Assembly (NCBI GenBank): GCA_049999805.1
Contig: JBNGIO010006370.1
Location: 497,212 to 555,804 of the forward strand
DNA: 58,593 nucleotides
From: Folioceros fuciformis
Lineage: Eukaryota
Reading direction: 5' to 3'
Part shown: piece after piece, positions 8,683 through 32,477 of the stretch
How positions within the stretch are numbered: position 1 is the first letter of the stretch
How the letters are laid out: the number at the start of each line of letters is the position of its first letter
Position numbers and translations under genes: made by a program
Notes under the pieces: model-generated
Told to the model about the DNA's origin: nothing
What the model saw: the letters and a program-made list of their open reading frames with translations, nothing else
Databases searched by the model: none

Positions 8683-8732
8683 AGACTATATATAAAATAT
8701 ATATTAATATATCAATATACATAATACATATT
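8645..8732. repeat. (TA)n-rich microsatellite overlapping the PPR1 stop codon
   Basis: Seen directly. Confidence 0.9.
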
Positions 8733-11700
8733 AATCAACTCGGCTTCACTTTGATCATCTCCAACCAAAAAACTATGCACCAAACCATTTGTGTCTGTCC
8801 ACCAGCTCTGACCTGGCTGCTTCCATGCCCTAATTCTTTTCCTCCTGAACTGCATTTTCTGCGCCTGCTCGCACATGTGGGCGCTCATGTATATATTCGA
8901 CATCAGGACATACGGTGCAGCGTCTCTCTGGTCCAGCTTGACTGCTTCATTGAAAGCGCGGTGTCCCACATCCACGTTACCCCACTTCCGACAAGCACTC
9001 AAGAGTGTGCGCCAAACTGCAGCATTAGGCTGTAAAGGCATTGTGATTACTAAACCCAGTGCCTCATCCAGTTGTCCTGCACGACCCAAGAGATCTACCA
9101 TGCATGTGTAGTGGATTTCCGTGGGAATGATCCCATAGTCTCTGCTCATTGCATCAAAGAAATTCTGGGCTGTGGTCACTAGACCTCTGTGACTACACAC
9201 AGTTAGTACACTAAGGAATGTGATGCCGTCTGGGCTAATGCCGTCCACACTCATTTTCTGGAACAAGTCAAACACCACTTCACTGTTCCCCTCACCAGTG
9301 TAGCCTGCAATCAGGGCATTCCAGACAAAAACATCTCGTTTGGGCAATGCATCAAACACCTCCTGGGCAAGTACTGTGATCCCGGACTTCCCGTACATGT
9401 TTATCAAATTGCCAGCTACAAGCACATTAGCTTCAAGACCTTGTTCTACAATGTGTGCATGTACCTGACGCCCCAAACCTAAGGCTGCTACATTTGAACA
9501 GGCCTGCAGGAGACACACGAATGTCGCAGGATCCGGTACAGCCTTGCCTTCTTGTAGCATGCAACTGTAGAGACGAAGGGCCTCCTGCCCCATACCCTGC
9601 TGGGAGTAACCCGCTATCATTGCATTCCACGTTACTACATCCTTTCTACCAAGTCTGTCAAAGACTTTCTGCGCATCGTTCAAGCTGCCACACTTTGCAT
9701 ACATGTTCACCAAGCCGCTCGCTACAAACAGGTCGTCTTCAAAGCCTTGTTCTCGAATTGTTGTGTGCAGCTGCTTCCCGTTTTGAAATGCAGGGACGCC
9801 TAAACATGCACAAGCCTGCAGCACGCACAAGAATGTCACTGAGTTGGGCGCAGCCACGCCCTCTTCTTGCATATCATAGTAAAGGGAAAGAGCTTCATGA
9901 CCCATGCCCTGATGCGAATATCCTGCTATCATGGCATTCCACGTCACCACATCTTTTTCATCCAGTCCATCAAACAGTTGCTGAGCGTCCTCCAAGCTAC
10001 CACAATGTGCATACATATGCACTAAACTGCTGGTCACAAACACATCAGCGTCATGTCCTCCTTCTCTGATATGCAAATGAATCTGCTTTCCCGTCTCCAG
10101 AGCCGAGTTGCCCATACATGCACATGCCTTTAGGACGGACAAGAACGTGACAGAATTGGGAGAAGCCACGCCTTCTTCTTGCATCGCACTGTAGAGACGA
10201 ATGGCTTCCTTGCCCATTCCCTGCTGGGAGTACCCTGCTATCATGGTATTCCATGTCACGACATTCTTTTGAGAAAGTCCATCAAACACCCTTTGGGCGT
10301 CATGCAAGCTGCCACACTTCACATACATGTTTACCAAACTGCTCACCACAAATACATCAGCTTCATAGCCTCCTTGTCGCAGCTGGTCATGAAGATGCTT
10401 CCCCTTCTCAAACGCTGCAGTGCCCACACTTGCACAAGCTTGGAGGAGGCTCACAAACGTCACGGAATCCGGTACAGCCATACCTTCTTCCTGCATAGCA
10501 CTGTGGAGACGAAGAGCTTTCTCCCCCTTGCCCTGCTGGGTGTAGCCTGCTATCATGGCATTCCAAGTTGCTGCATTCTTCTGACCAAGTCCATCGAATA
10601 CACTCTGTGCAATTTCCAAGCAGCCACACTTTGCATACATGTTCACCAAACCGGTCCCTACAAACACGTCAGCCTCAAGTCCTCGTTCTTTGATTTGCGC
10701 ATGCAGTTGCTTCCCCTTATCCACCGCTGGGGAGCCCACACTTGCGCATGCTTGCAGGAGGCACTTGAATGTCACGGAATCAGGTACAGCGCTGACAGAT
10801 TGCTGCATACAGCTGTACAGACGAAGGGCTTCATGCCCCATGCCCCCCTGATAATACCCTGCTATCATGGCATTCCACGTCACCACATTTTTTTCACCGA
10901 GTCCGTCAAACAGCCTTCGTGCATCTTCCAAGCTGCCACACTTTGCATACATAGTGACCAAACTGTTCGCCACAGACACATCAGCTTCATGGCCTCGGTT
11001 TCTGAGATGCAAATGAAGCTGTCTCCCTTCTTGCAATGCGGGGGTCCCCATAGTTGCACATGCCTGCAACAGGCATGCGTATGTCACAGAATTCGCTACT
11101 GCCATACCACCTTCTTCCATTGCACTCCAAAGCTGAAGAGCTTCCAGCCCCATGCCCTGCTGGGAGTACCCTGCTATGAGGGCATTCCATGTCACCACAT
11201 TCTTTTGACCAAGTCCGTCAAACACTCTCTGAGCGTCCTCCAGGCTGCCACATTTTGCATACATGTTTATCAAGCTGTTGGCTACAAACACATCCACTTC
11301 ATGTCCTTGTGCCCTAATCTGTGCATGAAGCTGCTGCCCCTTCTCCAAAGCCAGGGCACCCATCCTTGCACATGCCTGCAGGAGGGAAACGAATGTAACA
11401 GGATTGGGTGCAGTCATGCCCTCTGCTCGCATAGCACCGTAGAGACGAAGGGCTTCTTCCCCCATACCCTGCTGGGAATACCCTGCTATCATGGCATTCC
11501 ATGTCACCACATCTCTTTCACGCAGTCCGTCAAATACCCCTCGAGCTTCCTCCAAGCTGCCACACTTTGCATACATACTCACCAGGCAGTTGCACACAAA
11601 TAAACCAGGGTCAACGCCACTAACCAACACATCAGCGTGCACCTGCTGTCCAGATTTCAAGTCTGAACCCCTGGCGCAAGCCTGCAAAGCTGCCACAAAA

Positions 11701-12596
11701 ACATGGCTATCTGGTTTCACGCTGGACCTACGCATCCTATGATACAGTTGTATGGCAATCTTGTCTCTACCCTGTTTAACATGTGCAGAAATTATGGAAT
11801 ACCACATGAAAGCATCTGGTTCGGCCACACCTTCGAACACATCCATCGCATCTTGCAACCTGCCAAGAGAAGCATACATTCGTAGGATGTGATTGCACAG
11901 GAACGTATCTGACTGGTAACCCTTTGTCAACGTGAAAGCATGGATGCGGCTTCCCTGAACAAGATCCTTCTCCTCTATGCATTTCCTCAGAACTGTGACC
12001 AACAGAGATTTGGAAATAAAAGGTTCTGTCAGCACCAGGACTTCCAAACCCTCAACAGCCTCACTCAGATGACCCTCATGACAAAGCTTCATCACGGTCT
12101 CAGCCGACAAGCCTCTGTACTGACGAGTAAACCTGATGGGGTCAGGGTCACGAGGCAACTTCCTGTAGGCCATATCCAGAGCAGCAAGCTGTGCATCCAC
12201 CCAAGCTGGCTTATGCAAGCTGTTTAACCAGAGGACGTCATGGGACTGCCTGTGCCGGAAATCAGGCGATCGGCAGCTCTTCTTACTTTGCCTGTAATCC
12301 CACCAAACTGTAGGATCCTGGAAAAGATGTCGCCACAAGTTCTCCTGCCGACGCCCCTCAGTGGAGGACGGATTGCCAGCTACAGATTGCCTTGGACTGG
12401 CAGGCTTCCTGGCAAAGGTGCTGCACCTCCCGTTCTGATTCTGCACCACCACCTGCTGGTTGCTTACAGCAATTCGGACAGGAGTTCTTTCTCGAACACC
12501 CGCTAAGGCAACCCACTCCTCTATCCTCCAACATTGTCCCCAAGCAGGATCCACCTGCCCTTGAGGTAATCTGCTTTCAACGAACCATATTGCCAT
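8712..12596 (-). CDS. PPR1: PLS-class PPR protein (E/E+, WW-type PG box, no DYW) with an N-terminal OSB-type PDF motif; putative organellar RNA-editing specificity factor
   Basis: Intronless 1294-aa ORF. P-L-S triplets, then P2-L2-S2 (CSHRGLV, HYTCMVDLLGRAG), E1/E2 and KQPGQSWWTD...HSFLVGD. N-terminal LWRHLFQDPTVWWDYRQSKKSCRSPDFRHRQSHDVLWL...PAWV. Confidence 0.93.
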   Translation of the reverse strand: MAIWFVESRLPQGQVDPAWGQCWRIEEWVALAGVRERTPVRIAVSNQQVVVQNQNGRCSTFARKPASPRQSVAGNPSSTEGRRQENLWRHLFQDPTVWWDYRQSKKSCRSPDFRHRQSHDVLWLNSLHKPAWVDAQLAALDMAYRKLPRDPDPIRFTRQYRGLSAETVMKLCHEGHLSEAVEGLEVLVLTEPFISKSLLVTVLRKCIEEKDLVQGSRIHAFTLTKGYQSDTFLCNHILRMYASLGRLQDAMDVFEGVAEPDAFMWYSIISAHVKQGRDKIAIQLYHRMRRSSVKPDSHVFVAALQACARGSDLKSGQQVHADVLVSGVDPGLFVCNCLVSMYAKCGSLEEARGVFDGLRERDVVTWNAMIAGYSQQGMGEEALRLYGAMRAEGMTAPNPVTFVSLLQACARMGALALEKGQQLHAQIRAQGHEVDVFVANSLINMYAKCGSLEDAQRVFDGLGQKNVVTWNALIAGYSQQGMGLEALQLWSAMEEGGMAVANSVTYACLLQACATMGTPALQEGRQLHLHLRNRGHEADVSVANSLVTMYAKCGSLEDARRLFDGLGEKNVVTWNAMIAGYYQGGMGHEALRLYSCMQQSVSAVPDSVTFKCLLQACASVGSPAVDKGKQLHAQIKERGLEADVFVGTGLVNMYAKCGCLEIAQSVFDGLGQKNAATWNAMIAGYTQQGKGEKALRLHSAMQEEGMAVPDSVTFVSLLQACASVGTAAFEKGKHLHDQLRQGGYEADVFVVSSLVNMYVKCGSLHDAQRVFDGLSQKNVVTWNTMIAGYSQQGMGKEAIRLYSAMQEEGVASPNSVTFLSVLKACACMGNSALETGKQIHLHIREGGHDADVFVTSSLVHMYAHCGSLEDAQQLFDGLDEKDVVTWNAMIAGYSHQGMGHEALSLYYDMQEEGVAAPNSVTFLCVLQACACLGVPAFQNGKQLHTTIREQGFEDDLFVASGLVNMYAKCGSLNDAQKVFDRLGRKDVVTWNAMIAGYSQQGMGQEALRLYSCMLQEGKAVPDPATFVCLLQACSNVAALGLGRQVHAHIVEQGLEANVLVAGNLINMYGKSGITVLAQEVFDALPKRDVFVWNALIAGYTGEGNSEVVFDLFQKMSVDGISPDGITFLSVLTVCSHRGLVTTAQNFFDAMSRDYGIIPTEIHYTCMVDLLGRAGQLDEALGLVITMPLQPNAAVWRTLLSACRKWGNVDVGHRAFNEAVKLDQRDAAPYVLMSNIYMSAHMCEQAQKMQFRRKRIRAWKQPGQSWWTDTNGLVHSFLVGDDQSEAELINMYYVY

Positions 12597-13384
12597 GGCT
12601 CAGTTGCAGGAGCACCGCCTGCGAGACTACGTATGCAAGTCGGATCCACCACACTGCACTTCCTGGACAGAACCTCGAACCACCTGCATAATGACATGAC
12701 TGACCATCTCACCAAGTGCAATTGTGACATCAGCCTGCCTCTGGGCACAGTCCTCGGGAGCTTTAGCTTCATGCCTTCCTCCTACCATTCTCCGTGCTGA
12801 AGAGTAAAGAAACGTGATTCATTTGGTGGTAAACCACACGTCCGATTGGCAGTGCACATATGTTTTCTGTAAGGGCCCTCGCTCACCCACTCCTCACTGA
12901 GCAGCGCAAGTATCTCCAGGCTGACTGCAATTTTATCTCGCTTAGAAGCAGACAGCGAGAAGAACGTGGAGTCCGAAAATGGGCAAACGAACCAGTGACA
13001 GCAAGAGCTGCAAAGATCCCATATCACAGATGAATACAGCTCCAAAATGTGCATCCACCTGCAAGCATACCAACCTGCCCCTGCTGTGGGAACAGGTTTG
13101 CAACAGTTGAAGAATTTACAGGATAGTAGTAGAGACTGCTGCAGAAAACTTGGTGTCACCGAATTCTGGATCACCTTTCAGTTGTCTGCCTCAAAATCCG
13201 ACTTTAGCTCAGTTGGGCGATGGAGGATTGTAGACGAATACGTATATGTTGCTAAGTGGGCAACCCGTCTTTAGCTTGGAAGAAGCGCTCGCCAAAACGG
13301 AGAGAAATCCCCGAGCTTAGCCGAGCCTGAAGGAGCTTAGGCCTGAAGGAACTTATTCAAGAGAATGCTGGGCTGAGGACCCAC

Positions 13385-16036
13385 ATGGCTCAACAGTTTT
13401 CAGAAGTAGTTCGGGTGAATGCGAGGTTGGCTGCTCCAGATCGGAGTGGCCCCACGGCTGAAATGGTGGGGAAGCTTTGTCAACTGGGGCAGACCGTTGA
13501 TGCTGTTGAAGCTCTGGGAGTTATCGTGCAGACAGGCTGTGGTGTTTCTCGATCCCTTGTACATGCTGTCCTAAAACAGTGTGTGGTGACAAGAGATTTG
13601 GTTTTGGCTCGCCGTGTTCATGCTCTGTTTGTGAAGGAGGGGTACGAGTCGGACACGTTTTTGTGCAACCACATCCTACGAATGTATGCTTCTCATGCCA
13701 GGTTGCAAGAAGCAATGCAATTGTTCACAATGGTGGCCAAACCAGATGCCTTCACATGGTCTGCCATAATTTCTGCTCATGTCAAACACGGGCAAGAAAA
13801 GATGGCCGTCCAACTGTACTATCGGATGCGTATGTCAAGTGTCAAACTGGATTGCCATGTCTTTGTAGCAGCACTTCAAGCCTGTGCTAAGGGAGGGGAC
13901 TTGGAAACTGGGAAGCAGGTGCATGCTGATTTGCTGGCCAGTGCGGTTGTCCCTGATTTGTTTGTTTTCAACTGCTTGGTGGACATGTACTCAAAGTGTG
14001 GCAGCCTAGAAAAAGCTCAGAGAGTGTTTGATGAACTTGGTCAGAAAGATGTGATCACTTGGAATGTGATGATTGCAGGATATTCGCAGCAGGGAATGGG
14101 GCAGGAAGCCATTTGTACTTTCAGTACTATGCAAGACGAAGGGTTCGTTGCACCTGATTCGGTGACATTTCTGGCCGTTTTGCAGGCCTGTGCGAGTCTG
14201 GGTACTGCAGCTTTGGAGAAGGGGATGCAGCTTCATGCACAGATAACAAAATGCGGACTTCAAACAAATGTGTCTGTGGCGAATAGTTTGGTGAACATGT
14301 ATGCAAAGTGCGGCAGCTTGGAAGATGCTCAAAAGATATTTGACAAGCTTCCTCACAAAGATGTGGTGACTTGGAATGCCATGATAGCAGGATATTGCCA
14401 ACAGAACATGGGTCAGGAAGCCCTGCATCTTTATGATGATCTGCAAGCTGAAGGCTTGGTTGAACTCAATTCTGTGACGATTCTGTGCCTCCTGCAGGCC
14501 TGTGCAATTGTTGGCACCCCGGCTTTAGGAAAGGGGAAGCAGCTTCACGCAGAGATTGGAGTACGAAGGCTTTTGGCTGACGTGTTTGTGGCCAACAATT
14601 TGGTAACCATGTATACAAAGTGTGGCAGCTTAAAAGACGCTCGCACAGTGTTTGATGGACTGTGTCAAAAGAACGTGGTGACATGGAATGCCATCATTGC
14701 AGGGTATGCGCAGGAGGGCATGGGTCAGGAAGCCCTTCGTCTCTACAGTGCTATGCAGGATGAAGCCACTGCTGCACCTAGTTCTGTGACTTTTGTGTCT
14801 GCCCTGCAGGCTTGTGCTAGTATTGGTACCCCAGCGTTGGGGAAAGGGAAACAACTGCATGCAGAGGTTGAACGGCAAGGACTCCAGGCGGATGCTGTTG
14901 TAGGTGGCAGCCTGGTAAACATGTATGCAAAGTGTGGCAGCTTACTGGATGCTCAGAGGGTGTTTGACGGGCTTAGTCAGAGGACTATTGTGACATGGAC
15001 CGCTCTGATAGCAGGATATTCTCAGCAGGGCATGGGGCAGGAAGCTCTTCGTGTGTACAGTCTTATGCACAAAGAAGAATGTATCGTAGCACCGACTGGG
15101 GTGACGTTTGTTTGCCTACTGCACGCTTGTGCTGATGTGGCAGACTTGCGTCTTGGAAGACAGCTTCATGCACAGATTGAAGACCAAGGGATTCAAACTG
15201 ATCTAGCCATCAGTTTGATAAACATGTACGCAAAGTGCGGGAGCATGGTCGATGCACAGGAGGTGTTTGATGCATTACCTCAAAGAGACGTCGTGGCCTG
15301 GAATTCTCTGATGGCAGGTTACTCTCGCCAGGGAGACAGCGAGGCGGTCTTCGACTTGCTCCAGAGAATGGAAGAAGCCGGCATACACCCTGCCTGCATC
15401 ACCTTCCGTAGTGTACTATCTGCGTGCAGTCATGCGGGTCTAGTGAACAAGGGGCGAGATTACTTTGAGGCTATGAGCAAAGAATATGGGATCATTCCCA
15501 CAAGAGAACACTACACGTGCATGGTGGATCTCCTGGGTCGTGCAGGCCACCTGGGCACGGCACTAGCTTTGGTCAGGACCATGCCGGTAACACCTGACCC
15601 TGCAGTTTGGCACACTCTGTTGGGCTCTTGTCAAAAGTGGAACAACGTGGAGGTGGCACAGCATGCTTTCAATGAAGCTGTGAAGCTCGACAAACACGAT
15701 GCGGCAGCCTACGTGTCTATGTCGAACGTGTACCTGGCTGCTGGGATGTGTGATGAGGCACAGGAAATGCAGTTGACGAGGTTAGGGATAGGCGCATGGA
15801 AGCAACCAGGCCAGACCTCGTGGACGGATATGGATGGACTGCTGCATACATTTTCAGTCGGGGACCAGACTCGTCCACAGAGCGAATGTGTACACGTAAG
15901 GCTTAGCAAAATGGTTTGTTCCTTGCAGAAAGACGCTGCAGTGGGCGTGTTTGAAGATGCGCATGACCCCAACGTAATAAGAATGAAGCCCAAACACATG
16001 ACACTCTGGACACGTATGTGCGCAACAAGCATCTAG
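13385..16036 (+). CDS. PPR2: PLS-class PPR protein, E+ subclass, no DYW
   Basis: Intronless 883-aa ORF with PLS triplets, CSHAGLV, E1/E2 and KQPGQTSWTD...HTFSVGDQTRPQSE. No HxE/CxxC deaminase motif. Confidence 0.92.
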   Translation: MAQQFSEVVRVNARLAAPDRSGPTAEMVGKLCQLGQTVDAVEALGVIVQTGCGVSRSLVHAVLKQCVVTRDLVLARRVHALFVKEGYESDTFLCNHILRMYASHARLQEAMQLFTMVAKPDAFTWSAIISAHVKHGQEKMAVQLYYRMRMSSVKLDCHVFVAALQACAKGGDLETGKQVHADLLASAVVPDLFVFNCLVDMYSKCGSLEKAQRVFDELGQKDVITWNVMIAGYSQQGMGQEAICTFSTMQDEGFVAPDSVTFLAVLQACASLGTAALEKGMQLHAQITKCGLQTNVSVANSLVNMYAKCGSLEDAQKIFDKLPHKDVVTWNAMIAGYCQQNMGQEALHLYDDLQAEGLVELNSVTILCLLQACAIVGTPALGKGKQLHAEIGVRRLLADVFVANNLVTMYTKCGSLKDARTVFDGLCQKNVVTWNAIIAGYAQEGMGQEALRLYSAMQDEATAAPSSVTFVSALQACASIGTPALGKGKQLHAEVERQGLQADAVVGGSLVNMYAKCGSLLDAQRVFDGLSQRTIVTWTALIAGYSQQGMGQEALRVYSLMHKEECIVAPTGVTFVCLLHACADVADLRLGRQLHAQIEDQGIQTDLAISLINMYAKCGSMVDAQEVFDALPQRDVVAWNSLMAGYSRQGDSEAVFDLLQRMEEAGIHPACITFRSVLSACSHAGLVNKGRDYFEAMSKEYGIIPTREHYTCMVDLLGRAGHLGTALALVRTMPVTPDPAVWHTLLGSCQKWNNVEVAQHAFNEAVKLDKHDAAAYVSMSNVYLAAGMCDEAQEMQLTRLGIGAWKQPGQTSWTDMDGLLHTFSVGDQTRPQSECVHVRLSKMVCSLQKDAAVGVFEDAHDPNVIRMKPKHMTLWTRMCATSI

Positions 16037-16094: not shown

Positions 16095-16268
16095 TCTGGA
16101 AAGTATTTGCTGGTCATCACCAACCAGGAAACTGTGCACCAGTCCATCCTCATTTGTTCACCAGCTCAAACCCGGCTGCTTGGATGCCTTGATTCGTTTC
16201 CTGGTCTCCTGCAGCCTCGGTGCACCCTCCGCATCTGGGCACCATTGTGTATGTCGGACTATCAACAG
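16095..16268 (-). pseudogene. Inverted fragment of a PPR E2/PG-box region
   Basis: The minus strand reads SDIHNGAQMR/LQETRKRIKASKQPGLSW*TNEDGLVHSFLVGDD, homologous to the PPR3 C-terminus SNIYTGSQMW...RIGAWKQPGQSWWTDDEGLVHSFLVGD. TGG>TGA stop plus frameshifts. Confidence 0.85.
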
Positions 16269-16518
16269 GTAGAGAGAGGATGAACCCATCTACCACACCA
16301 TAGGGCGGCATGGGGCGAGCCGAGGTCACATAAGCTGGAGGATCGATGAACCGTCCCTGATGTCAGTCACATGGAGCGCAGGAAACGAAAGCACATGGCA
16401 ACAATTCACCTGCCATGGTATCCTTCCAATGTGGTTGCAAGGTCGATGGTCTTCTAGAAAATGCAAATCCGGTGGGTGCTCCTTGCATCCACAGGCTTAG
16501 CGCGTGCCCCTGCAAGCA

Positions 16519-19500
16519 ATGGCTGTTCCGAGAGTGGCAATCGGGTCACGCAAAGGGGAGGAAGGCACGTTGTGGGGACACTTTTCCTGGACACAAGAAT
16601 GCGGTGGCTGCACGGGTCATGTTCTGGGAGGATGGTCTGTTGGTCTGAATTCCAAGAACCAACGGTTTGGGCAGAGGCAGCTGGGCAGAAAGCCAGCCCG
16701 TGCAAGAGGATGCCTGACCGGCGAAGACTGTAGCCGTCAATCGACTCTCTTGCGGTCCAGGCAGTCCCGAGGGGCCCTCTGGTTAAACAAATCTTTAAAG
16801 CCAGCTTGCGTGGCTGCGGAGCTTGCTGCTCTGGATGATTCTGAGCTTTGCAGGCTTGCAGATGATGATAAGAGCGTGACAGTTGAAACTGTTAGGAAGC
16901 TCTGTGGAAATGGCCGCGTCGCTGCGGCCGTTGAGGCTTTGGAGGTTCTGGTGGAGTTAAAACGTCGTATTCCCAGGTCTCTCTTATATGCTGTTCTGAA
17001 GAAGTGTGCAGGGAAGAAAGATGTTGTTCTGGGCAGCCGTGTCCATGCATTGGTGATGAAAAAGGGATTCCAGTCAGACACGTTCCTGGGCTTCCACATC
17101 CTCCGGATGTATGCGTCTCATGGCAAGTTGCAAGACGCGATGGAGGTGTTTGGAGCCGTTTCCAAACCGGATGCCTTCATGTGGTCTGCCATAATATCTG
17201 CACATGTCAAGCATGGGAAAGACAAGCAGGCCATAGAGCTGTACTTTCGGATGCGCAGGACTGGTGTGAAGGGAGATGGGCATGTGTATGTGGCAGCTCT
17301 GCAGGCTTGTGCGAGGGCATCGGACTTGCAGTCTGGGGAGCAGGTGCATGCTGATGTGTTGACTAGTGGCCTTCAGCCTGATTTGTTTGTGTGTAACTGC
17401 TTGGTGAGCATGTATGCAAAGTGTGGCAGCTTGGAGAAAGCTCAGCAGGTGTTCGATGGCCTTGGTCATAGAGATGTCGTGACCTGGAATGCTCTGATTG
17501 CAGGCTATTCCCAGCAAGGTATGGGGGAGAAAGCCCTTCGCCTATACAGTGTGATGCAAGAGGAAGGCGTGATTGTACCCAATTCCTTGACATTCGTGTG
17601 CCTCCTGCAAGCATGTGCAAATGTGGGCACTCGAGCTTTGCAGACAGGGAAGCATCTTCATGCACAAGTCAGGGAACGACGACATCAAGCTGATGTCTCC
17701 GTGGCCAATAGTTTGGTGAGCATGTATGCAAAATGTGGCAGCTTGCAAGATGCTCAGAGGGTGTTTGATGGGCTTGGCCACAAGGATGTGGTGGCCTGGA
17801 ATGCCATGATAGCAGGGTATTCCCAGCAAGGTATGGGACAGAAAGCCCTTCGACTCTACAGTGCTATGCAAGAACAAGGAGGCATGGCGTCACCCAATTC
17901 CGTCACATTTGTGTGCTTGTTGCAGGCATGTGCAAGTGTGGGCACCCCCGCATTGGAGAAGGGGAGGCATGTTCATGTGCAAATAAAAGAACGAGGTCAT
18001 GAAGGTGATGCGTTTGTAGCCAGCAGTTTGGTGAACATGTATGCAAAGTGTGGCAGCTTAGAGGACGCTCAAAAAGTGTTTGATGGATGTGGCGAAAAAA
18101 ATGTGGTGATGTGGACTGCCATGATAGCAGGCTATTCCCAGAAGGGTCTCGGGCACGAAGCGCTTCATCTCTATAATGCTATGCAAGAGGGAGGTATGGC
18201 TGTACCCAATTCTGTGACATTTGTGTGCCTCCTGCAGGCTTGTGCAAGTATAGGCACCACGGCCCTGGAGAAGGGCAGGCTTCTCCATTTGCAAATTAGA
18301 GAGCAAGGACATGAAGGTGATGTCTTCGTGGCCAACAGTTTGGTGAACATGTATGCAAAGTGTGGCAGCTTGGGAGACGCTCAAAGAGTGTTTGACGCGC
18401 TTGGTCAGAAAGATGTGGTGACGTGGACTGCCATGATAGCGGGATATTCCCAGCAGGGGATGGGCCAGGAAGCCCTGTCTCTCTACAATGCTATGCAGCA
18501 AGAAGGCATGGCTGTTCCAAATTCTATCACCTTTGTGTGCCTCCTGCAAGCATGTGCAAGTGTGGGCACTTCAGCGTTGGAGATGGGGAAGCACCTTCAT
18601 GCAAAAATTAAAGATCAAAGTGATGTAGTTGATGTATTTGTAGCCAACAGTTTGGTGAACATGTATGCGAAGTGTGGCAGTCTACAGGATGCTCAAAGTG
18701 TGTTCGATAGACTTGGTGTAAGAGATGTGGTGACCTGGACTGTTATGATAGCTGGGTATTCCCAGCAGGGTATGGGGCAGGAAGCGCTTCATCTTTACAG
18801 TGCCATGCAAAACGAAGGCATGGCCGCACCTGATTCAGTGACCTATGTTTGCCTCCTGCAGGCCTGTGCAAGTGTGGGTACTCCAGCTTTGGAGATGGGA
18901 AAGCTGCTTCATGCGGAAATCAGAGAAGGAGGACATGAAGCTGATGTTTTTGTAGCCAACAGTTTGGTGACCATGTATGCAAAGTGTGGCAGCCTACAAA
19001 CTGCACAGAGAGTGTTTGACCGGCTTGGTAAAAAAGACGTGGTGACGTGGACTGCCATGATAGCAGGGTATTCCCAGCTGGGCAAGGGCCAGGAAGCTCT
19101 TCGTATCTTCAGCGCTATGCAAGAAGGAGGCATGGCTGTACCCGATTCTGTAACCTTTGTGTGCCTCCTGCAGGCGTGTGCAAGTGTAGGCGCCCAGGCT
19201 TTGGCTGAGGGGAAGCAACTCCATGCACAGATTAAAGAAGGAGGGCACGAAGCTGATGTGTTTGTGGCCAACAGTTTGGTCAGCATGTATGCAAAGTGTG
19301 GCAGCTTGGAAGATGCACAGAACGTGTTCGATGGACTTGTTCAACGAGATGTGGTTACCTGGACTGCCATGATCGCAGGGTATGCTCAGCAGGGCATGGG
19401 ACAGGGAGCCCTTAATCTCTACAGTGCTATGCAGGCAGAGGGTGTTGCAGTTCCTGATTCTGTAACCTTTATTTGCCTCATGCAGGCATGCGCAAATGTG

Positions 19501-20289
19501 GCAGCTTTGAATCTGGGAAGGCAGCTACATGCCCAGATTGTGCAACAAGGCCTTCAGGCTGATGTAGTTATAGCTGGAAGTTTGATAAATATGTACGGGA
19601 AGTCCGGCAGCACGGTCGATGCACAGCAGGTGTTTGATGCATTGCCTAACAGAGACATTGTCGCCTGGAATGCATTAATTGCAGGCTACACCATTCAAGG
19701 GCAGAGTGAAATGGTCTTCAACTTGGTCCAGAGGATGAAAGACTGTGGCACACAGCCAGACAGCGTCACGCTGCTCAGTGTACTCACAGTATGCAGTCAT
19801 GCCGGTCTGGTGAACAAGGGGCGGGAGCATTTTGAGGCTATGAGCAGAGAATACAGCGTTGCTCCCACCGAGGACCACTACACATGCATGGTGGATCTCC
19901 TATGTCGGTCGGGACAACTGGATGACGCTCTGGCCTTAGTCAGGACAATGCCTCTACTCCCAACTGCCGCAGTTTGGCACACTCTGTTGGCTGCTTCTCG
20001 AAAGTGGGGCAAGGTTGAGGTGGGACGCCATGCGTTCGACGAAGCAGTGAAGTTAGACGACAAAGACGCCGTGGCATACGTGCTCATGTCCAACATATAC
20101 ACCGGCTCCCAGATGTGGGAACAGGCACAGGAGGTACAGGTGAGGAGAACTAGAATCGGGGCATGGAAGCAACCAGGTCAGAGCTGGTGGACAGACGATG
20201 AAGGACTGGTGCATAGTTTCTTGGTCGGGGATGAACAGCATAATCCTCACAGTCGAGCAAAGTCGCAACAAAGAATGTCCCGAACTTGA
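16519..20289 (+). CDS. PPR3: PLS-class PPR protein (E/E+, WW-type PG box, no DYW) retaining half of a PDF motif
   Basis: Intronless ORF; the first ATG (16519) is homologous to the PPR1 start. ~312-nt PLS triplet period, KQPGQSWWTD and RSRQSRGALWLNKSLKPACVAAELAALD. Confidence 0.92.
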   Translation: MAVPRVAIGSRKGEEGTLWGHFSWTQECGGCTGHVLGGWSVGLNSKNQRFGQRQLGRKPARARGCLTGEDCSRQSTLLRSRQSRGALWLNKSLKPACVAAELAALDDSELCRLADDDKSVTVETVRKLCGNGRVAAAVEALEVLVELKRRIPRSLLYAVLKKCAGKKDVVLGSRVHALVMKKGFQSDTFLGFHILRMYASHGKLQDAMEVFGAVSKPDAFMWSAIISAHVKHGKDKQAIELYFRMRRTGVKGDGHVYVAALQACARASDLQSGEQVHADVLTSGLQPDLFVCNCLVSMYAKCGSLEKAQQVFDGLGHRDVVTWNALIAGYSQQGMGEKALRLYSVMQEEGVIVPNSLTFVCLLQACANVGTRALQTGKHLHAQVRERRHQADVSVANSLVSMYAKCGSLQDAQRVFDGLGHKDVVAWNAMIAGYSQQGMGQKALRLYSAMQEQGGMASPNSVTFVCLLQACASVGTPALEKGRHVHVQIKERGHEGDAFVASSLVNMYAKCGSLEDAQKVFDGCGEKNVVMWTAMIAGYSQKGLGHEALHLYNAMQEGGMAVPNSVTFVCLLQACASIGTTALEKGRLLHLQIREQGHEGDVFVANSLVNMYAKCGSLGDAQRVFDALGQKDVVTWTAMIAGYSQQGMGQEALSLYNAMQQEGMAVPNSITFVCLLQACASVGTSALEMGKHLHAKIKDQSDVVDVFVANSLVNMYAKCGSLQDAQSVFDRLGVRDVVTWTVMIAGYSQQGMGQEALHLYSAMQNEGMAAPDSVTYVCLLQACASVGTPALEMGKLLHAEIREGGHEADVFVANSLVTMYAKCGSLQTAQRVFDRLGKKDVVTWTAMIAGYSQLGKGQEALRIFSAMQEGGMAVPDSVTFVCLLQACASVGAQALAEGKQLHAQIKEGGHEADVFVANSLVSMYAKCGSLEDAQNVFDGLVQRDVVTWTAMIAGYAQQGMGQGALNLYSAMQAEGVAVPDSVTFICLMQACANVAALNLGRQLHAQIVQQGLQADVVIAGSLINMYGKSGSTVDAQQVFDALPNRDIVAWNALIAGYTIQGQSEMVFNLVQRMKDCGTQPDSVTLLSVLTVCSHAGLVNKGREHFEAMSREYSVAPTEDHYTCMVDLLCRSGQLDDALALVRTMPLLPTAAVWHTLLAASRKWGKVEVGRHAFDEAVKLDDKDAVAYVLMSNIYTGSQMWEQAQEVQVRRTRIGAWKQPGQSWWTDDEGLVHSFLVGDEQHNPHSRAKSQQRMSRT

Positions 20290-23134: not shown

Positions 23135-25372
23135 TCATTTTCTCGGCGCCCGCAAGGTTGACAAATGGTCCGAAATGAAATCAAACGCCTTCGTATCCTC
23201 TTTCGGTGTTTCAACAGGACCTGAGTTCCTCGGCATCGGATCACTGGAGAAGTCAAAGCCATCACTGTACATGTTGCTCAGCCCGGGCCCATGGCTGTTC
23301 ACCATTCCTCCAACATTTCCTGCAGCTGATAAGCCACTTAGCCCGCCTGTGAGCTGTTGTGGAGGGAAAGCTGCATTCATACCACCAAGAGACACGAAAC
23401 CAGGCATAAAGCCTTGCTGCAACATGGGATTAGGGCCGGGTACCAAAGGACGAGGAATACCCCTTGAATACATGTTCATGAGCATGAGCTGTTGTTGGAG
23501 TACTGCTCCAGCTGCATAATTAGGCACCGGCATGTTGGCGTGAGAGAGAACAGGCACATCTGGCAGATTTGACGGGAAGCCGCCACTGCTCCCAGCCAGG
23601 GAAGGCTGGGACTGTTGATAAGGTTGATTTGTATGAAATTGATGCGACGAACTGCTACCATTCTGAGCACCATTGGCAGCCAAACCTGCCATCAGATTGG
23701 CGAGCCCGTCTACAGCCTCAGATCTTCCCGCTGCTGATTCTGTGGTGTTCAAAGAAAGTCCTGCAAAGAAACTGTCGTCATCTTTACTTTCCAAACCTGA
23801 CGCAGCGCCATTCAAGGAGATTCGGCCATCGGCAGCCTCCATGCCAGCAAACAAATCTGCCGCGGCAGGTTCCGGGTTAGTATCCTTCACGGGGTGGACA
23901 GCCATTCCGGCAAATGGGTCTGAGCCTTCTAGGTCAGCGTCATCCTGAAATGTAGCCGACCAGTCGCTGCTGCCTAGCATGTCACTTGGCTCTGCCCCAT
24001 CTGCTTGTTTCTGCTGCAATTCATCTCGGACAGCAGACTCATCCTTTGTGACATCAGCGTTTCCAGAGAAATCCCAGTCATTGGTGTCCAAAAGGTCTGG
24101 CAGCGGGGCAGCAACAACCGGTGCAGGAGCAACAGTTGCCACACCCGGGGGAGGCGGGGGAGGAGGCAGCTTGAGATTAACTCCCCTCCCATCTTCTGAC
24201 CCGCTGTCATCTTGTGAAACACCTAGTAGATCCAGCACCTTCTTGGTCTTCTCCCTCAGCGACAGCTGTGGAGATTTGAGGCATTCCTTCACGATACTGC
24301 TATCGTCCTCGAACAGTTCCGCAACTTTACCAAACGTCTTGACCTCCCTTTGTCTCAGTAGAGCTTCTAACACACACAAAGCTTTCAACCGGACCTGCCA
24401 CGAGTGCGCTTGCAGCTTCCTTTCCAACGCATTGCAAAGATTGAGGGCATCTAGCTTCGCTGCATCTGCAAGGAACGCCTGCAGGGCATCCCGTGTAGGG
24501 TGCAGACGCACACCCCCAGCCGCAGTGATGGTGTCTAAAAGCCTTTCCTCTTGCGTGCTCGCTCTCCTCTCAGTCGACCCTTCCCTCCCACCGCTCACCT
24601 TGGCATCACGCTCCGACGTGGAAGCCCGTGGATTCTCCGACTCCTGAGCACCAGCCACCTCCTTGGGATCGTACTTGTCATATTTGTCCCTATCACGGTC
24701 TCGCTCACGGAGCGCAGTAAGGGACCGTCTCAACCCTGTAGTAGACCCACGATGGCCCCCACCGGAGCTGCTCATGTAACCAGACGGAACGTCTACACCC
24801 TGTCCTCCAGTCACCATGTTGATCCCCTTCATCAAAGAAGCACTTCCAAACCCGATCATCCCTCCGAGTATGGTCTTGGGAGTGTCATCGGAGGGACGGT
24901 CCACGGGGGTGTTACCAAACCCCTGAATCCTCCTCCCAGCAGCTCCCGCCTCCTCTGGACTCGCTCCCGGTCGATCCTCGGCAAACAGAGCAACAAGAGC
25001 TTCTTGAGCGGTCTCCCTTACGGCCTTGTTCAGAGAATCACCTTTCAGAGCATCCATCTGGCCCCTGTAGTGCACTAACTGCCGCACTGTGCCACCCTGC
25101 CTCTGCATCTCCCTCTTGAAATCCACTCCCCCCTTCGGCGCCGCGAACTTGATCAGCCGCAGCACCTTCTGCTTTACCACGGGGCTCTTATGCTCCAGCC
25201 GCTTCATCATGTACAACACCATCTCCTTCACCACATCCGAAGACGCAGATCGCAGTGTGGAACACACCTCCTCCAGCCGATACACCGCAGCAATCTTATC
25301 ATCCTCCGTGGTCACACTATCCACCATGCGACTCCGTCGGTAGGCCTCCACGGCCCGCACGCTGGCCTCCAT
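23135..25372 (-). CDS. MTV1: ENTH/VHS-domain AP-4 accessory protein (MTV1/tepsin-like)
   Basis: 745-aa single-exon ORF. N-terminal ENTH (KRLEHKSPVVKQKVLRLIK, KGDSLNKAVRETAQEA), second VHS-like domain (EERLLDTITAAGGVRLHPTRDA, SWQVRLKALCVLEA) and C-terminal KEDTKAFDFISDHL. Confidence 0.88.
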   Translation of the reverse strand: MEASVRAVEAYRRSRMVDSVTTEDDKIAAVYRLEEVCSTLRSASSDVVKEMVLYMMKRLEHKSPVVKQKVLRLIKFAAPKGGVDFKREMQRQGGTVRQLVHYRGQMDALKGDSLNKAVRETAQEALVALFAEDRPGASPEEAGAAGRRIQGFGNTPVDRPSDDTPKTILGGMIGFGSASLMKGINMVTGGQGVDVPSGYMSSSGGGHRGSTTGLRRSLTALRERDRDRDKYDKYDPKEVAGAQESENPRASTSERDAKVSGGREGSTERRASTQEERLLDTITAAGGVRLHPTRDALQAFLADAAKLDALNLCNALERKLQAHSWQVRLKALCVLEALLRQREVKTFGKVAELFEDDSSIVKECLKSPQLSLREKTKKVLDLLGVSQDDSGSEDGRGVNLKLPPPPPPPGVATVAPAPVVAAPLPDLLDTNDWDFSGNADVTKDESAVRDELQQKQADGAEPSDMLGSSDWSATFQDDADLEGSDPFAGMAVHPVKDTNPEPAAADLFAGMEAADGRISLNGAASGLESKDDDSFFAGLSLNTTESAAGRSEAVDGLANLMAGLAANGAQNGSSSSHQFHTNQPYQQSQPSLAGSSGGFPSNLPDVPVLSHANMPVPNYAAGAVLQQQLMLMNMYSRGIPRPLVPGPNPMLQQGFMPGFVSLGGMNAAFPPQQLTGGLSGLSAAGNVGGMVNSHGPGLSNMYSDGFDFSSDPMPRNSGPVETPKEDTKAFDFISDHLSTLRAPRK

Positions 25373-26423
25373 TGAAGCAGGTCACTGCACCAGTGCAGGC
25401 CACAACAATCAGATCCCGACAGCCACTTCCGGCAAAGAAGGCCAGATCCGCACACTCTCACAAGCCTAATCTGTGCAACCTCCCGCACTCAGCTGAGCAG
25501 ATCGCCACAACAAGCTGCAGCTGGCAGGACACTCAGATCCGACGTTCACATCCGCCAAAACAGCCACGAGAAACACTGACCTGTGTGAACCAGCCCAAGA
25601 AGACGGCAGCCAGGAGAAGACTGGAAAGACGCTGGAGCCGCCGCGGCCTGTCGTCTCCAGTACGCAGCGACTAAAGGCTATGCTACGCGACCACAGACCA
25701 CGACACCTTCTCCCCTTCCGTTGTCAAGCAGCCTACCAGTTGTTTTCGTTTCCTGTTGAAGAAAATGCTAGAACCGACCCTTTACTTGAGAAAACCAAGA
25801 GAACCATCTACCTCGAGAGAAGTGAAACAAACCGCCACCAAAGCTGACCGAGCCCCCAAGGGCAACCCCCTCAACCCGCTGAGTTTAAAAATTAATCAGA
25901 GCATCCAAGATATTTTTGTCCAAAAAAGAGAGGGTCTAGCTACCATTGGAGTCGTTCATATTACCTTTCCTAAAATTGATGTTCTTCCATATATTCTATT
26001 AGCTAGGGTATGTCCATTGTAATGCAATGGAAACCCTCCATGGAAACAATGCTACAATAGAGGAAGACCAAGCCTATTTTTCTTATTGTGAACTACCTTG
26101 ATGTAATCCTTCACAAACTTGGAAAAGACCTTGTACATAACCCTATATGTCTTAACCACAAGGGGATAAAGGGAGATATAATGTGTATGGCCTGCAAAGA
26201 AGTGTACGTGTGGGTTTGGGCCGTTGAGTTCCCCTGGTGCCATCCAACCCGGGAAGTTGGGGACAACATGCTCGTAGATCAAGGTCCCTGTGGATTTGAT
26301 ACAACCATGCTTGCAGATCCAAGTATGTGTGGGTTTCATACAACCATGTTTGCAACATAAGCTTGTTTTGCCTAGATAAGGAAAGGGTCAGCCACTAGAG
26401 AAACATCATGAGAGAGCCAACGA

Positions 26424-29309: not shown

Positions 29310-32300
29310 ATGTTGTCCTCCGTGTCTGCCAAATCCTCAGGCCCGATTGCGGCCGAGCCGCTGAAGACACTGAAAGAGCTTGCCGACACGACGTCAGTGA
29401 ACTATGTGTTCACCAGGGGATCTGTGCCACTGGCTCCTTCAGGTCAACCAGATAGGCCCCGGCTGCTGGTCTGTCACGATTTCAAAGGAGGCTACCAAGA
29501 CGATAAGTGGGTTCAGGGGAATCACAACGGTGGAGCATACTCCCTCTGGCACTGGGACCTGATTGACGTCTTTGTCTACTTTGCGCACGATCTGGTTACG
29601 TTGCCCCCGCCTGGGTGGATCAATGCCGCACACAAGCATGGGGTGCGGGTAAGCACAAATATCGGGGAGGGAGGCAAGTGGAGGGGCAAAGTGGGCAATT
29701 GATTGGCAGGAGGTCTGAATTGTGTTTGTGGCGCAGGTTTTGGGGACCTTCATCACGGAATGGAAGGAAGGCAAAATTACGTGTGCTGAGCTGCTGGCAT
29801 CGCATGCATCCGTTCGGCTATACGCCTCACGTCTTGCAGAATTGGCTTGTAGTTTGGGCTTTGATGGCTGGTTGGTACGTATCGGCAGCTTCAGATTGCT
29901 TTGTGGAGTGTTTGTTTTGAATGCATGAAGAAAGTTTTGCTTCCCTGGTTTGCAGCTTTGATAACTTCGGCTTTCTCCCCACGCACTTGCGTGATCAGCT
30001 TGTATGTAACACATTCTTCCCTGCGTGGACCAGATAAACATCGAAAATCCGATTGAGCAGGACCAGATCCCGTTGCTGGTGGAGTTTGTCCATCAGCTGA
30101 CAGGAATGACACGTTCTCTGGTTCCTGATTCTCTGGTTATCTGGTATGAGAGAATCTCCTGTAGTGATTACCAATTTGATTGACAGGCAGAGGCAGGGGC
30201 CTCCTTCGCTTGCAGCAATGATGGATATCTGGTTGTCATGTGCTTGTCCTCTGATCACAGGTACGATGCTGTTACGATAGATGGACGGCTGGATTGGCAG
30301 AATTGCTTGAATTTGCGGAACAAGGCATTCTTTGATGTCTGTGACGGTATTTTCACGAACTATGCATGGACGGTGCGTGCCCTTCTTGCAAGAGAACAAC
30401 GCTTGTTTATTGATGTTTTTTGTGCGGGTTGAAGATGCTAGGCCAGTTCCCAAGGGCCCCCTGCTGGTGCTGACCTACTGGGTACCGGGCAGCATGATAA
30501 CCCATTGACCTCTGCCGAGCTTGCCGGTGATCGTGCCGATGATGTCTACATGGGAGTCGATGTTTTTGGAAGAAACACTTTTGGGGGTGGAGGGTTCAAT
30601 GTGAGCGAGATGCCAACCTACAACAGGTTCATATGCTTGTGGAGAGTGTTCTCACTGTAAACTTCGGGCTGATGAAAAACTGCTGCTGACACAGAGTGAT
30701 TACGCTCTTAAAGTAGCCCGCGGTTCAGGTGTCTCAGCCGCTCTCTTTGCTCCTGGCTGGGTGTATGAGACAGACCAAGGCCCTGATTTTCATACAGCAC
30801 AAGACAGGTCTGTCTTTGCTTTGGATGTCGATGTGGATATTGCAAGTTCACACACACAGGAGCTACTTGGTTCATGTTACTAGCTCCCTCTTAACGTTCT
30901 TCTCGTAGGTGGTGGGACACAATTCACGCCGTATGGCCCCCTGCTCGCCGCAATCCGGTTACACTGCCTTTCTTCTCCGACTTCGATCAAGTTACGTGTT
31001 ATTCTTTGGCTGCCTTGCTGGATGAAGCGGGGTTGGGTTTCAGGTAACTTGCGTATTTATTGCTCTACTGACAAAGTGTAGTGATTCAGGGTATAGGGTA
31101 TGCTGTGTATGATCAGGGTCGGCAAATCTCTAAATCTCCTTGGAGCAACCTGTCGTGCCAGAATTTGCAGGTTGTGCACTTTTCGCGTTCCTATTTGCAA
31201 GTTCACGTGGGAGCAGCAACCACTGATGTGTTCTGTCGAACTGTCCAATGCTATTCAGGTGCTGTTCGACGGGTCTGTCGATGGCTCGAGACAGCCTTTG
31301 AAGACCTTTGTGAGGTCCATTGATGCAGGCAAACCTTTGTTTTGTTACTGGCTTCGCTCCAGAACGGTGTAAGGCAAGAGGTTTTGGTCCAATTTGCATA
31401 AGCTGAGGTCCATGCTCGTTTTTTGTTGCTCCAGTCAGGAAGACAAAGCCTATTCCGGAGGCTCTTGCGTGAGCATCTCCGGGAGTATGCCTGCCAAGGA
31501 TGTCTACCTGGTGAACTTCTACCGTTCAAATCTAGAGATATCGGCGGGTTCTCTTCATGTTTCCTACTCGGTATGGCAAAATCTACCCTCCCGCTTCCAG
31601 GATCATGAATTTCCGCCCGCGTATGCAGTGCAACTGGATGTCATGGCAGGTGAAGCTCAAGCTCCACTGTCAGCTCTCGCTTGCCTTGAAGTTGGAGGGC
31701 GATAAAGGTGCTATTACCACTATCTTCCTCATCGAAGAAGATGCCCCAACGGCCTGGCTCGCGAAAATAGCACATGCCTACTCTGTCAAGGCTCCTGACA
31801 ACTTCTTCAGGACCGGTGCAGAGGAAGGCAATCTATGGAACGTAAGAGACTATCACCTTGATCTGGAGGCTGGCACCATCACCCATATCTACGCTCTGGT
31901 TCATGGAGAGAACTCCTATGATAAAGCTCTGAGGCAGAAGTTCCAGGACCTCTTGATCGACCCTCCACCAGAGCCTTCTCTATCCTCCACTTGTAATCCG
32001 GGGTCCTGGGTAGCTACCGCAGACGAGGATGACCCATCCTCAACTCTAGGACACGACCTCACGTATGGAGCTCTGCTGGGTCATATAAGAATCGCAAATT
32101 GGGAACTGGCAGAATGCAAGCTGCGAGCAGTGTCCTATGATTTCGAAGCCCAACACGACGTATGGTCCAGAGCCAAGCAGCTGCTCAGCATCCTACTGCT
32201 ATGGAGGCCTGCAGGGTCAAAAGATACCCAGGGAAGCTGCCAGCCGGAACACTTCAAAATATTCACATGGGAAGAGGAAGACGAGGAGAATCCCAGCGAA

Positions 32301-32477
32301 GACGGAGCTGGCAAGGCCCAATTTCTCGGTGTGGCTAAGGTGAATGCCTTCTATGTCTACCACCTGCCTCTTCGGCCAAGAGCCTCGAAACTACGCTTTG
32401 CCATGAAGCCAGTGTGTGTGTGCGGAGGGTCGGAAGATCTGCCATCTTGCCCACAAATACGTGTAACCGTTCCTTGA
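29310..32477 (+). CDS. ENGase: Cytosolic endo-beta-N-acetylglucosaminidase (GH85), multi-exon
   Basis: RLLVCHDFKGGYQDD, WHWDLIDVFVYFAHDLVTLPPPGWINAAHKHGV, LGTFITEW, GFDGWL, YDAVTIDGRLDWQNCLN, CDGIFTNYAW and DVYMGVDVFGR. The start may be 29274 instead. Confidence 0.92.

Follow-up and report, generated by a model that had tools for sequence, protein, structure and literature searches.

An OSB-type PDF motif precedes the PPR array of a predicted PLS-class protein in Folioceros fuciformis and recurs in PPR proteins of seed-free land plants

A 58,593-nucleotide stretch of Folioceros fuciformis DNA (contig JBNGIO010006370.1 of assembly GCA_049999805.1; the window hereafter) encodes a predicted pentatricopeptide repeat (PPR) protein, gene 1, in which a PDF motif, the ~50-residue hallmark of OSB proteins, stands between an N-terminal presequence and a PLS-type repeat array. 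The motif is almost certainly genuine, and gene 1 belongs to a PDF+PPR family that recurs among seed-free land plants, is still unannotated, and has a DYW deaminase domain at the C-terminus of many members. The PDF motif and PLS-class PPR proteins are each known; what is new is their widespread combination, undescribed as far as the literature was searched. On balance, the evidence favors an E-subclass PLS protein whose N-terminal PDF module would act as an accessory grip on single strands.

PPR editing factors are closely studied, both as the RNA editing machinery of plant organelles and as designer RNA-binding tools, and few accessory domains are known for them. A folded module that binds single strands on the 5' side of the tract recognizing the target would add a helper element not known before, and one that could explain how editing factors reach sufficient affinity in plants without MORF proteins. 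Mosses, a liverwort, and a lycophyte supply dozens of proteins with this combination, annotated but unnamed, in which it was overlooked because no domain library models the PDF motif. The idea is directly testable in existing heterologous editing assays.

Identity of the PDF motif

The reverse complement of positions 12174-12338 translates exactly to LWRHLFQDPTVWWDYRQSKKSCRSPDFRHRQSHDVLWLNSLHKPAWVDAQLAALD, 55 residues that correspond to residues 87-141 of gene 1. An initial annotation of this DNA, made from the sequence alone, had both the peptide and its coordinates exactly right and left the strand unstated; the strand is minus, and the plus-strand reading was rejected as an unrelated peptide containing a stop. 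A phmmer search of 1.84 billion representative proteins with an 85-residue stretch around the motif retrieves 596 proteins at E<=1e-3, of which 161 reach E<=1e-10 and 19 reach E<=1e-30; many of these proteins hold 2-13 copies of the motif. Pfam domains were scanned in the best 150 of these 596 matches (24 + 126). The SSB family PF00436 is detected in 28 of the 150 at E<=1e-4, with 25 reaching the curated Pfam cut-off, and the motifs lie C-terminal of the SSB domain, the same domain order as the OSB layout reported in the literature (PMC6963530; PMC4166229).

An OSB-only profile, built from 60 motifs of these 28 PF00436-bearing proteins, matches the gene 1 frame over residues 78-143 with 76.7 bits (E 8.1e-23) among the 1461 six-frame open reading frames (ORFs) of the window, where the runner-up reaches 7.0 bits. 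The initial annotation had called the motif OSB-type and proposed a profile of this kind as a check; both the phmmer matches and the profile score bear out the call, with the caveat that the OSB-type proteins were found with the window's motif.

Residue-level agreement is complete. Gene 1 keeps all 15 conserved positions of the family, which an alignment of 28 single-motif relatives defines as 8 invariant columns and 7 nearly invariant ones: W88, F92, P95, W98, D100, R102, K105, P111, D112, F113, L122, W123, P130, W132, and V133. The Pro-Asp-Phe signature itself is P111-D112-F113, inside residues 87-141. PPR-linked and SSB-linked motifs share the consensus LW..F..P..WWD.R..K...PDFkhK....LWl...P.WV...L. 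Pfam contains no model that matches the segment, so domain surveys would miss the motif, and a sequence search of the PDB with the segment returns nothing below E 1.2.

Layout of gene 1

Gene 1 lies within a minus-strand frame (8712..12599) that is stop-free over 1295 codons, with methionine as codon 2. The gene itself (8712..12596, minus strand) is a single ORF of 1294 codons plus stop that reads presequence, PDF motif, linker, PLS-type PPR array, and E motif. The presequence (12366..12596, minus strand; residues 1-77) is presumed to target an organelle, and the product is presumably organellar; Pfam finds no family in the presequence or elsewhere in the first ~225 residues. The PDF motif core (12174..12338, minus strand; residues 87-141) sits inside the broader profile match (12168-12365) and is followed by a flexible linker to the first PPR helices (12105..12164, minus strand; residues 145-164), which shows a dip in model confidence and is partly deleted in the neighboring paralogs, genes 3 and 2.

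The P-L-S triplet array spans 9494..11584 (minus strand), where Tandem Repeats Finder reports a 312-nt (104-residue) period with 6.7 copies and 72% matches, and where Pfam PPR matches run throughout. Across gene 1, Pfam detects PPR_2 in 13 stretches and PPR in 16, plus E_motif; the tandem P-L-S character is read from these stretches together with the 312-nt period, the P, L, and S motifs being untyped individually. The E motif (8802..8981, minus strand; residues 1206-1265) scores 35.9 bits on PF20431 against a cut-off of 27.3, and the protein ends 29 residues further on. Pfam detects no PF14432 DYW domain in gene 1, and in tblastn comparisons the C-terminal parts of P0121 and P0123, relatives that bear a DYW domain, match genes 1, 2, and 3 in the E region alone. 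Because of the P-L-S period, the Pfam PPR and E motif matches, and this restriction of the C-terminal match to the E region, gene 1 is assigned by sequence to the E subclass of PLS-class PPR proteins. The PDF motif thus lies, as first described, in frame before a PLS array ending in an E motif, on the evidence of one stop-free frame, Pfam, and the 312-nt period. Across all 1294 residues no PF00436 SSB domain is found, even with the threshold relaxed to E<=1, a negative to be read with the divergence of OSB OB folds in mind, PF00436 being visible in 28 of the best 150 matches.

Predicted structure of the module

AlphaFold2 models the 85 residues around the motif, with 28 aligned relatives, at a mean predicted local distance difference test (pLDDT) of 87.9 and a predicted template modeling score (pTM) of 0.71. 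The predicted elements, in gene 1 numbering, are a helix at 79-93, strands at 98-100 and 113-115, and a second helix at 133-145. The motif fold is unchanged when residues 75-330 are modeled with 15 aligned PDF+PPR proteins (pLDDT 91.8, pTM 0.68). In that context, pLDDT is 83-94 over the motif, 56-75 over residues 145-164, and 94-98 over the PPR helices. In these models, the PDF motif looks like a compact alpha-beta-alpha module, a small domain of its own tethered by a flexible linker.

Structural searches with the motif model find no close analogue. Foldseek gives 0 matches in the PDB at E<=1e-3 (best 4.3), VIA-align gives a best Z of 3.9 among 48,161 chains with none at or above 5, and the best ESM Atlas score is 0.82, to phage and bacterial clusters and beneath the meaningful level. 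The absence of a solved analogue does not establish the PDF fold as new.

Recurrence of the PDF+PPR architecture

Twelve of the best 150 phmmer matches combine the motif with PPR repeats. Pfam detects PPR families in 11 of them (P0008, P0059, P0089, P0099, P0101, P0112, P0114, P0121, P0123, P0132, and P0133), and the twelfth, P0127, is recognized by a phmmer match to the window's PPR array. In all 12, one to three copies of the motif lie N-terminal of the repeats. Short fragments with a single motif add a sub-threshold PPR signal in 4 of 14 scanned. P0121 and P0123 bear a DYW deaminase domain, and P0121 also an E domain. P0121 is at the same time the nearest relative of the N-terminal 330 residues of gene 1 (46% identity over residues 58-330), followed by P0112 (39%).

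A protein search with the window's own motif returned no relatives among near or longer lengths, whereas P0123 as query did return some. A search with residues 70-170 of P0123, a Sphagnum protein, yields 89 candidates, of which 64 pass E<=1e-3. PPR families are present in all 64 and PF14432 DYW in 41, and the OSB-only profile matches every one of them (73.6-86.9 bits), always within the first 167 residues. Their source names are only hypothetical, unnamed, PPR-containing, or DYW domain-containing, and the named sources comprise seven Sphagnum species, Calypogeia fissa, and Diphasiastrum complanatum. Gene 1, with its single motif, shows the proposed PDF+PPR arrangement, in which one to three PDF motifs stand after the presequence and before the PPR array of one polypeptide. 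Its protein is ~30-32% identical to the best of the 64, and this low identity places it, judging by sequence comparison, in another subfamily of the architecture. The fusion proposed in the initial annotation is therefore real, and the chimera described there is no one-off, since 12 of the best 150 matches and 64 of 64 relatives are built alike, many with a DYW domain.

In a FastTree phylogeny of 383 motifs and 67 columns, the four rows nearest to the window motif are all PPR-linked, yet no supported clade contains it, and the PPR label requires 11 changes on the tree.

The motif also ranges more widely. A kinesin, P0054 (1526 residues; PF00225, E 1.8e-86), holds three PDF motifs ahead of its motor domain, which marks the motif as a mobile module not confined to OSB and PPR proteins and extends its known range to both PPR proteins and a kinesin. 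Five further proteins, P0003-P0006 and P0009, have 719-1160 residues and 9-13 PDF copies, against one to three described for Arabidopsis OSBs; the SSB match of P0003 is weak.

Tandem paralogs and decay of the motif

Two paralogs accompany gene 1. Gene 2 (13385..16036, plus strand) lies head-to-head with it and encodes a PLS-E PPR protein of 883 codons without a PDF motif, and gene 3 (16519..20289, plus strand) is a tandem paralog of 1256 codons, likewise of the PLS-E type, with a decayed motif. The relic in gene 3 (16650..16836, plus strand) was located by tblastn and three-frame translation. Its first half (16650-16724) is recognizable only in another frame, as FQEPTVWAEAAGQKASPCKRMPDRR, with W, D, R, and F replaced; its second half (16732-16836) is in frame, as ALWLNKSLKPACVAAELAALD, with TLL where PDF stood. 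The OSB-only profile detects the second half only, at 7.0 bits (E 0.44). A MAFFT DNA alignment instead suggested an 87-nt deletion of the first half, a reading set aside because tblastn and the three-frame translation show a frame shift; the motif of gene 3 is not intact under either. In gene 2, the last trace of the motif is VNARLAAPD (13415..13441, plus strand), which a local protein alignment pairs with VDAQLAALD of gene 1, nine residues that are weak evidence alone.

The repeats have fared differently from the motif. By the Nei-Gojobori method, the PPR parts of all three pairs differ by 0.17-0.25 nonsynonymous (dN) and 0.74-1.14 synonymous (dS) changes per site, with dN/dS of 0.19-0.28 (0.19-0.27 for gene 1 against gene 3; 0.22-0.28 for gene 2 against genes 1 and 3). 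The dS and dN/dS values indicate that the three copies are old and that all PPR arrays are constrained. Over the 38 alignable motif codons of genes 1 and 3, dN is 0.40 and dS 0.43, a dN/dS of about 0.9, and the presequence diverges fast between the same genes (dN 0.65, dS 1.22). By sequence comparison, the PDF motif appears to have been present in the common ancestor of genes 1-3, lost twice, and kept intact once. Neutral evolution across paralogs, which the initial annotation had named as grounds for doubt, describes part of the cluster, the motif having decayed in two of the three copies while it is fully intact in gene 1. At ~0.4-0.5 neutral changes per site per lineage, a rough estimate puts the chance survival of 15 unchanged codons below 1e-6. 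So improbable a neutral retention argues that the gene 1 motif is translated and selected, and its translation within the gene 1 protein is quite probable.

In all three clustered genes, only a short tail, different in each, separates the E motif from the stop. A search of the whole window at E<=1e-2 reveals no DYW remnant, from which it follows that the deaminase was lost before or early in the expansion of the cluster.

Several features of the motif-bearing DNA are recorded for completeness. Over the second half of the motif, the DNA of gene 1 (12174-12260, minus strand) and that of gene 3 (16732-16836, plus strand) are unusually similar, with 75% identity over 105 nt (blastn). For 29 codons of this half, dS is 0.175, compared with 0.74-1.1 elsewhere, a difference that could reflect small-sample noise, gene conversion, or nucleotide-level constraint. 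Runs X1 and X2, which consist of contigs of unknown kind and have no bearing on transcription, reach high contig depth near 12193. In X1, exact pieces cover 11836-12195 and 16248-16835, and numerous paralogous contigs stack on the PPR repeats.

Proposed function and competing explanations

PPR tracts bind RNA in parallel, their N-terminus facing the 5' side of the target, so the PDF module would sit just 5' of the sequence-specific footprint. There it may provide a sequence-unspecific grip on single-stranded nucleic acid, either on RNA upstream of the site or on exposed nucleoid DNA where the transcript is made. Such a grip would raise affinity or on-rate, or would place the factor at the nucleoid. 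The gene 1 protein would supply site recognition and, having no deaminase of its own, would need a DYW protein in trans. The module might tentatively be taken as an accessory single-strand binder rather than something else, a role we consider slightly less likely than not. For AtOSB1, the PDF motif reportedly suffices for single-stranded DNA (ssDNA) binding (PMC6963530). The label of editing factor given in the initial annotation fits the PLS-E class and the DYW domain of the closest relative, P0121; gene 1 itself has no DYW domain, and a role in RNA editing is inferred from class and relative.

A number of observations weigh against this account. It was the window's motif that served as query to find the OSB-type proteins behind the profile, and the motif tree leaves 213 of 378 inner branches open, so that one and several fusion origins are indistinguishable. 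Several acidic residues fall within the first 40 of gene 1, unlike typical transit peptides, and Met142 directly after the motif makes a shorter, motif-free protein conceivable. Two of three paralogs have no intact motif though their PPR parts are under purifying selection; the motif is therefore inessential to such proteins and dispensable in some copies. The missing DYW domain leaves the editing role a matter of analogy. Lastly, AtOSB1 and AtOSB2 reportedly prefer ssDNA to double-stranded DNA or RNA (PMC4166229), which disfavors a simple grip on RNA.

Among the competing explanations, the most serious, though unlikely, is that the module in PPR proteins is a surface for protein contact or oligomerization, which might bring in nucleoid proteins, other parts of the editosome, or a DYW deaminase acting in trans. 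Tetramers are reported for AtOSB2 (PMC6963530), gene 1 would need a partner because it has no deaminase, the many conserved aromatics could serve a contact surface as well as base stacking, and a module shared with kinesin P0054 suits a general adaptor. Recruitment of a deaminase is nevertheless not its general purpose, given that 41 of the 64 PDF+PPR relatives have their own DYW domain, and the sole biochemistry reported for the motif is ssDNA binding (PMC6963530; PMC4166229). Less probable still is a motif that lies outside the protein, through a start at Met142 or removal by splicing, its open frame being a recent leftover on the way to decay. The position of Met142, the atypically acidic presequence, and the loss of the motif from both neighbors would all fit. 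This explanation has to contend with 141 stop-free codons before Met142 in DNA of ~50% GC (an estimated chance of about 0.001) and with 15 of 15 conserved positions intact despite a dS of 0.74-1.09 to the paralogs. Met1, moreover, is the sole in-frame methionine ahead of the motif in gene 1, its ATG has a counterpart at the corresponding position of gene 3, and relatives in other species encode presequence, motif, and PPR repeats as one protein. Very improbable, finally, is a resemblance due to chance or low complexity, or a fusion produced by a gene model that joins an OSB-like gene to a PPR gene. Pfam and PDB sequence searches do come back empty for the segment; set against them are the E of 8e-23 on the OSB-only profile, the lack of any stop between motif and array, a frame without an SSB domain, and the recurrence of the arrangement in 12 of the best 150 matches and in 64 of 64 independent proteins.

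The accessory grip on single strands admits a bolder extension, to which we give a low probability. PDF+PPR proteins might form an unrecognized class of organellar RNA-editing proteins in seed-free plants, in which the ssDNA-binding module couples editing to the nucleoid or transcription bubble (co-transcriptional editing) or, alternatively, does a helper job like that of MORF proteins in seed plants. If so, loss of the module in the neighboring paralogs would mark factors that have switched to free transcripts.

Relation to known systems

We know of no described PLS-class E/DYW PPR protein with more than a targeting peptide before the array. Gene 1 shares the P-L-S triplet array and the E motif with these editing factors, and differs from them in its predicted folded PDF module before the array and in the absence of a DYW domain. 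With OSB proteins, gene 1 shares the ~50-residue PDF motif, the same conserved positions and consensus, and a probable organellar location. OSB proteins differ in having an SSB-like OB fold with the motifs C-terminal of it, whereas gene 1 has a single motif N-terminal of the PPR array and no detected OB fold.

PPR proteins with accessory domains offer a parallel in design, pairing a PPR tract with a second nucleic acid-related module. Extra domains reported for Physcomitrium PPR proteins are RRM, LAGLIDADG, SMR, NYN, CBS, and SAP (PMC9459714), and a 2026 survey reports RRM-PPR and MORF-PPR fusions (PMC13386178). PDF figures in neither list (PMC9459714; PMC13386178), and the main text of the survey contains 'OSB', 'PDF', and 'single-stranded' 0 times each, its supplementary tables S16-S18 lying outside this count (PMC13386178). 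Literature searches combining PDF or OSB with PPR or DYW turned up no description of the PDF+PPR architecture, in line with the initial annotation, whose author was aware of none; the original OSB paper and supplementary files fell outside their scope. Most of the publications found to use the term 'PDF motif' concern OSB proteins, and none concerns PPR proteins.

Whirly proteins are organellar ssDNA binders reported to work on RNA as well (PMC2532728; bioRxiv 10.1101/2024.08.28.610128), and provide a precedent for an organellar ssDNA binder active in RNA splicing or editing complexes. They differ from gene 1 in belonging to an unrelated fold and family and in being stand-alone proteins rather than a module fused to PPR repeats.

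Surroundings in the window

Ordinary nuclear genes flank the PPR cluster. A 748-codon ORF at 23135-25381 (minus strand) carries an ENTH domain, and an ORF at 31536-32477 (plus strand) carries the C-terminal Ig-like domain of ENGase1-like enzymes. At 24708-24884 (minus strand), a weak PDF-like match (E 0.47) lies out of frame inside the ENTH-domain ORF and was discarded as chance. Further along, the minus strand of 34820-43761 holds ORFs for parts of a dynein heavy chain, namely the C-terminal domain, the microtubule-binding stalk, AAA_7, and lids, which are evidently exons of one large gene. The dynein pieces point to an organism with flagellated cells, which fits a plant with swimming sperm.

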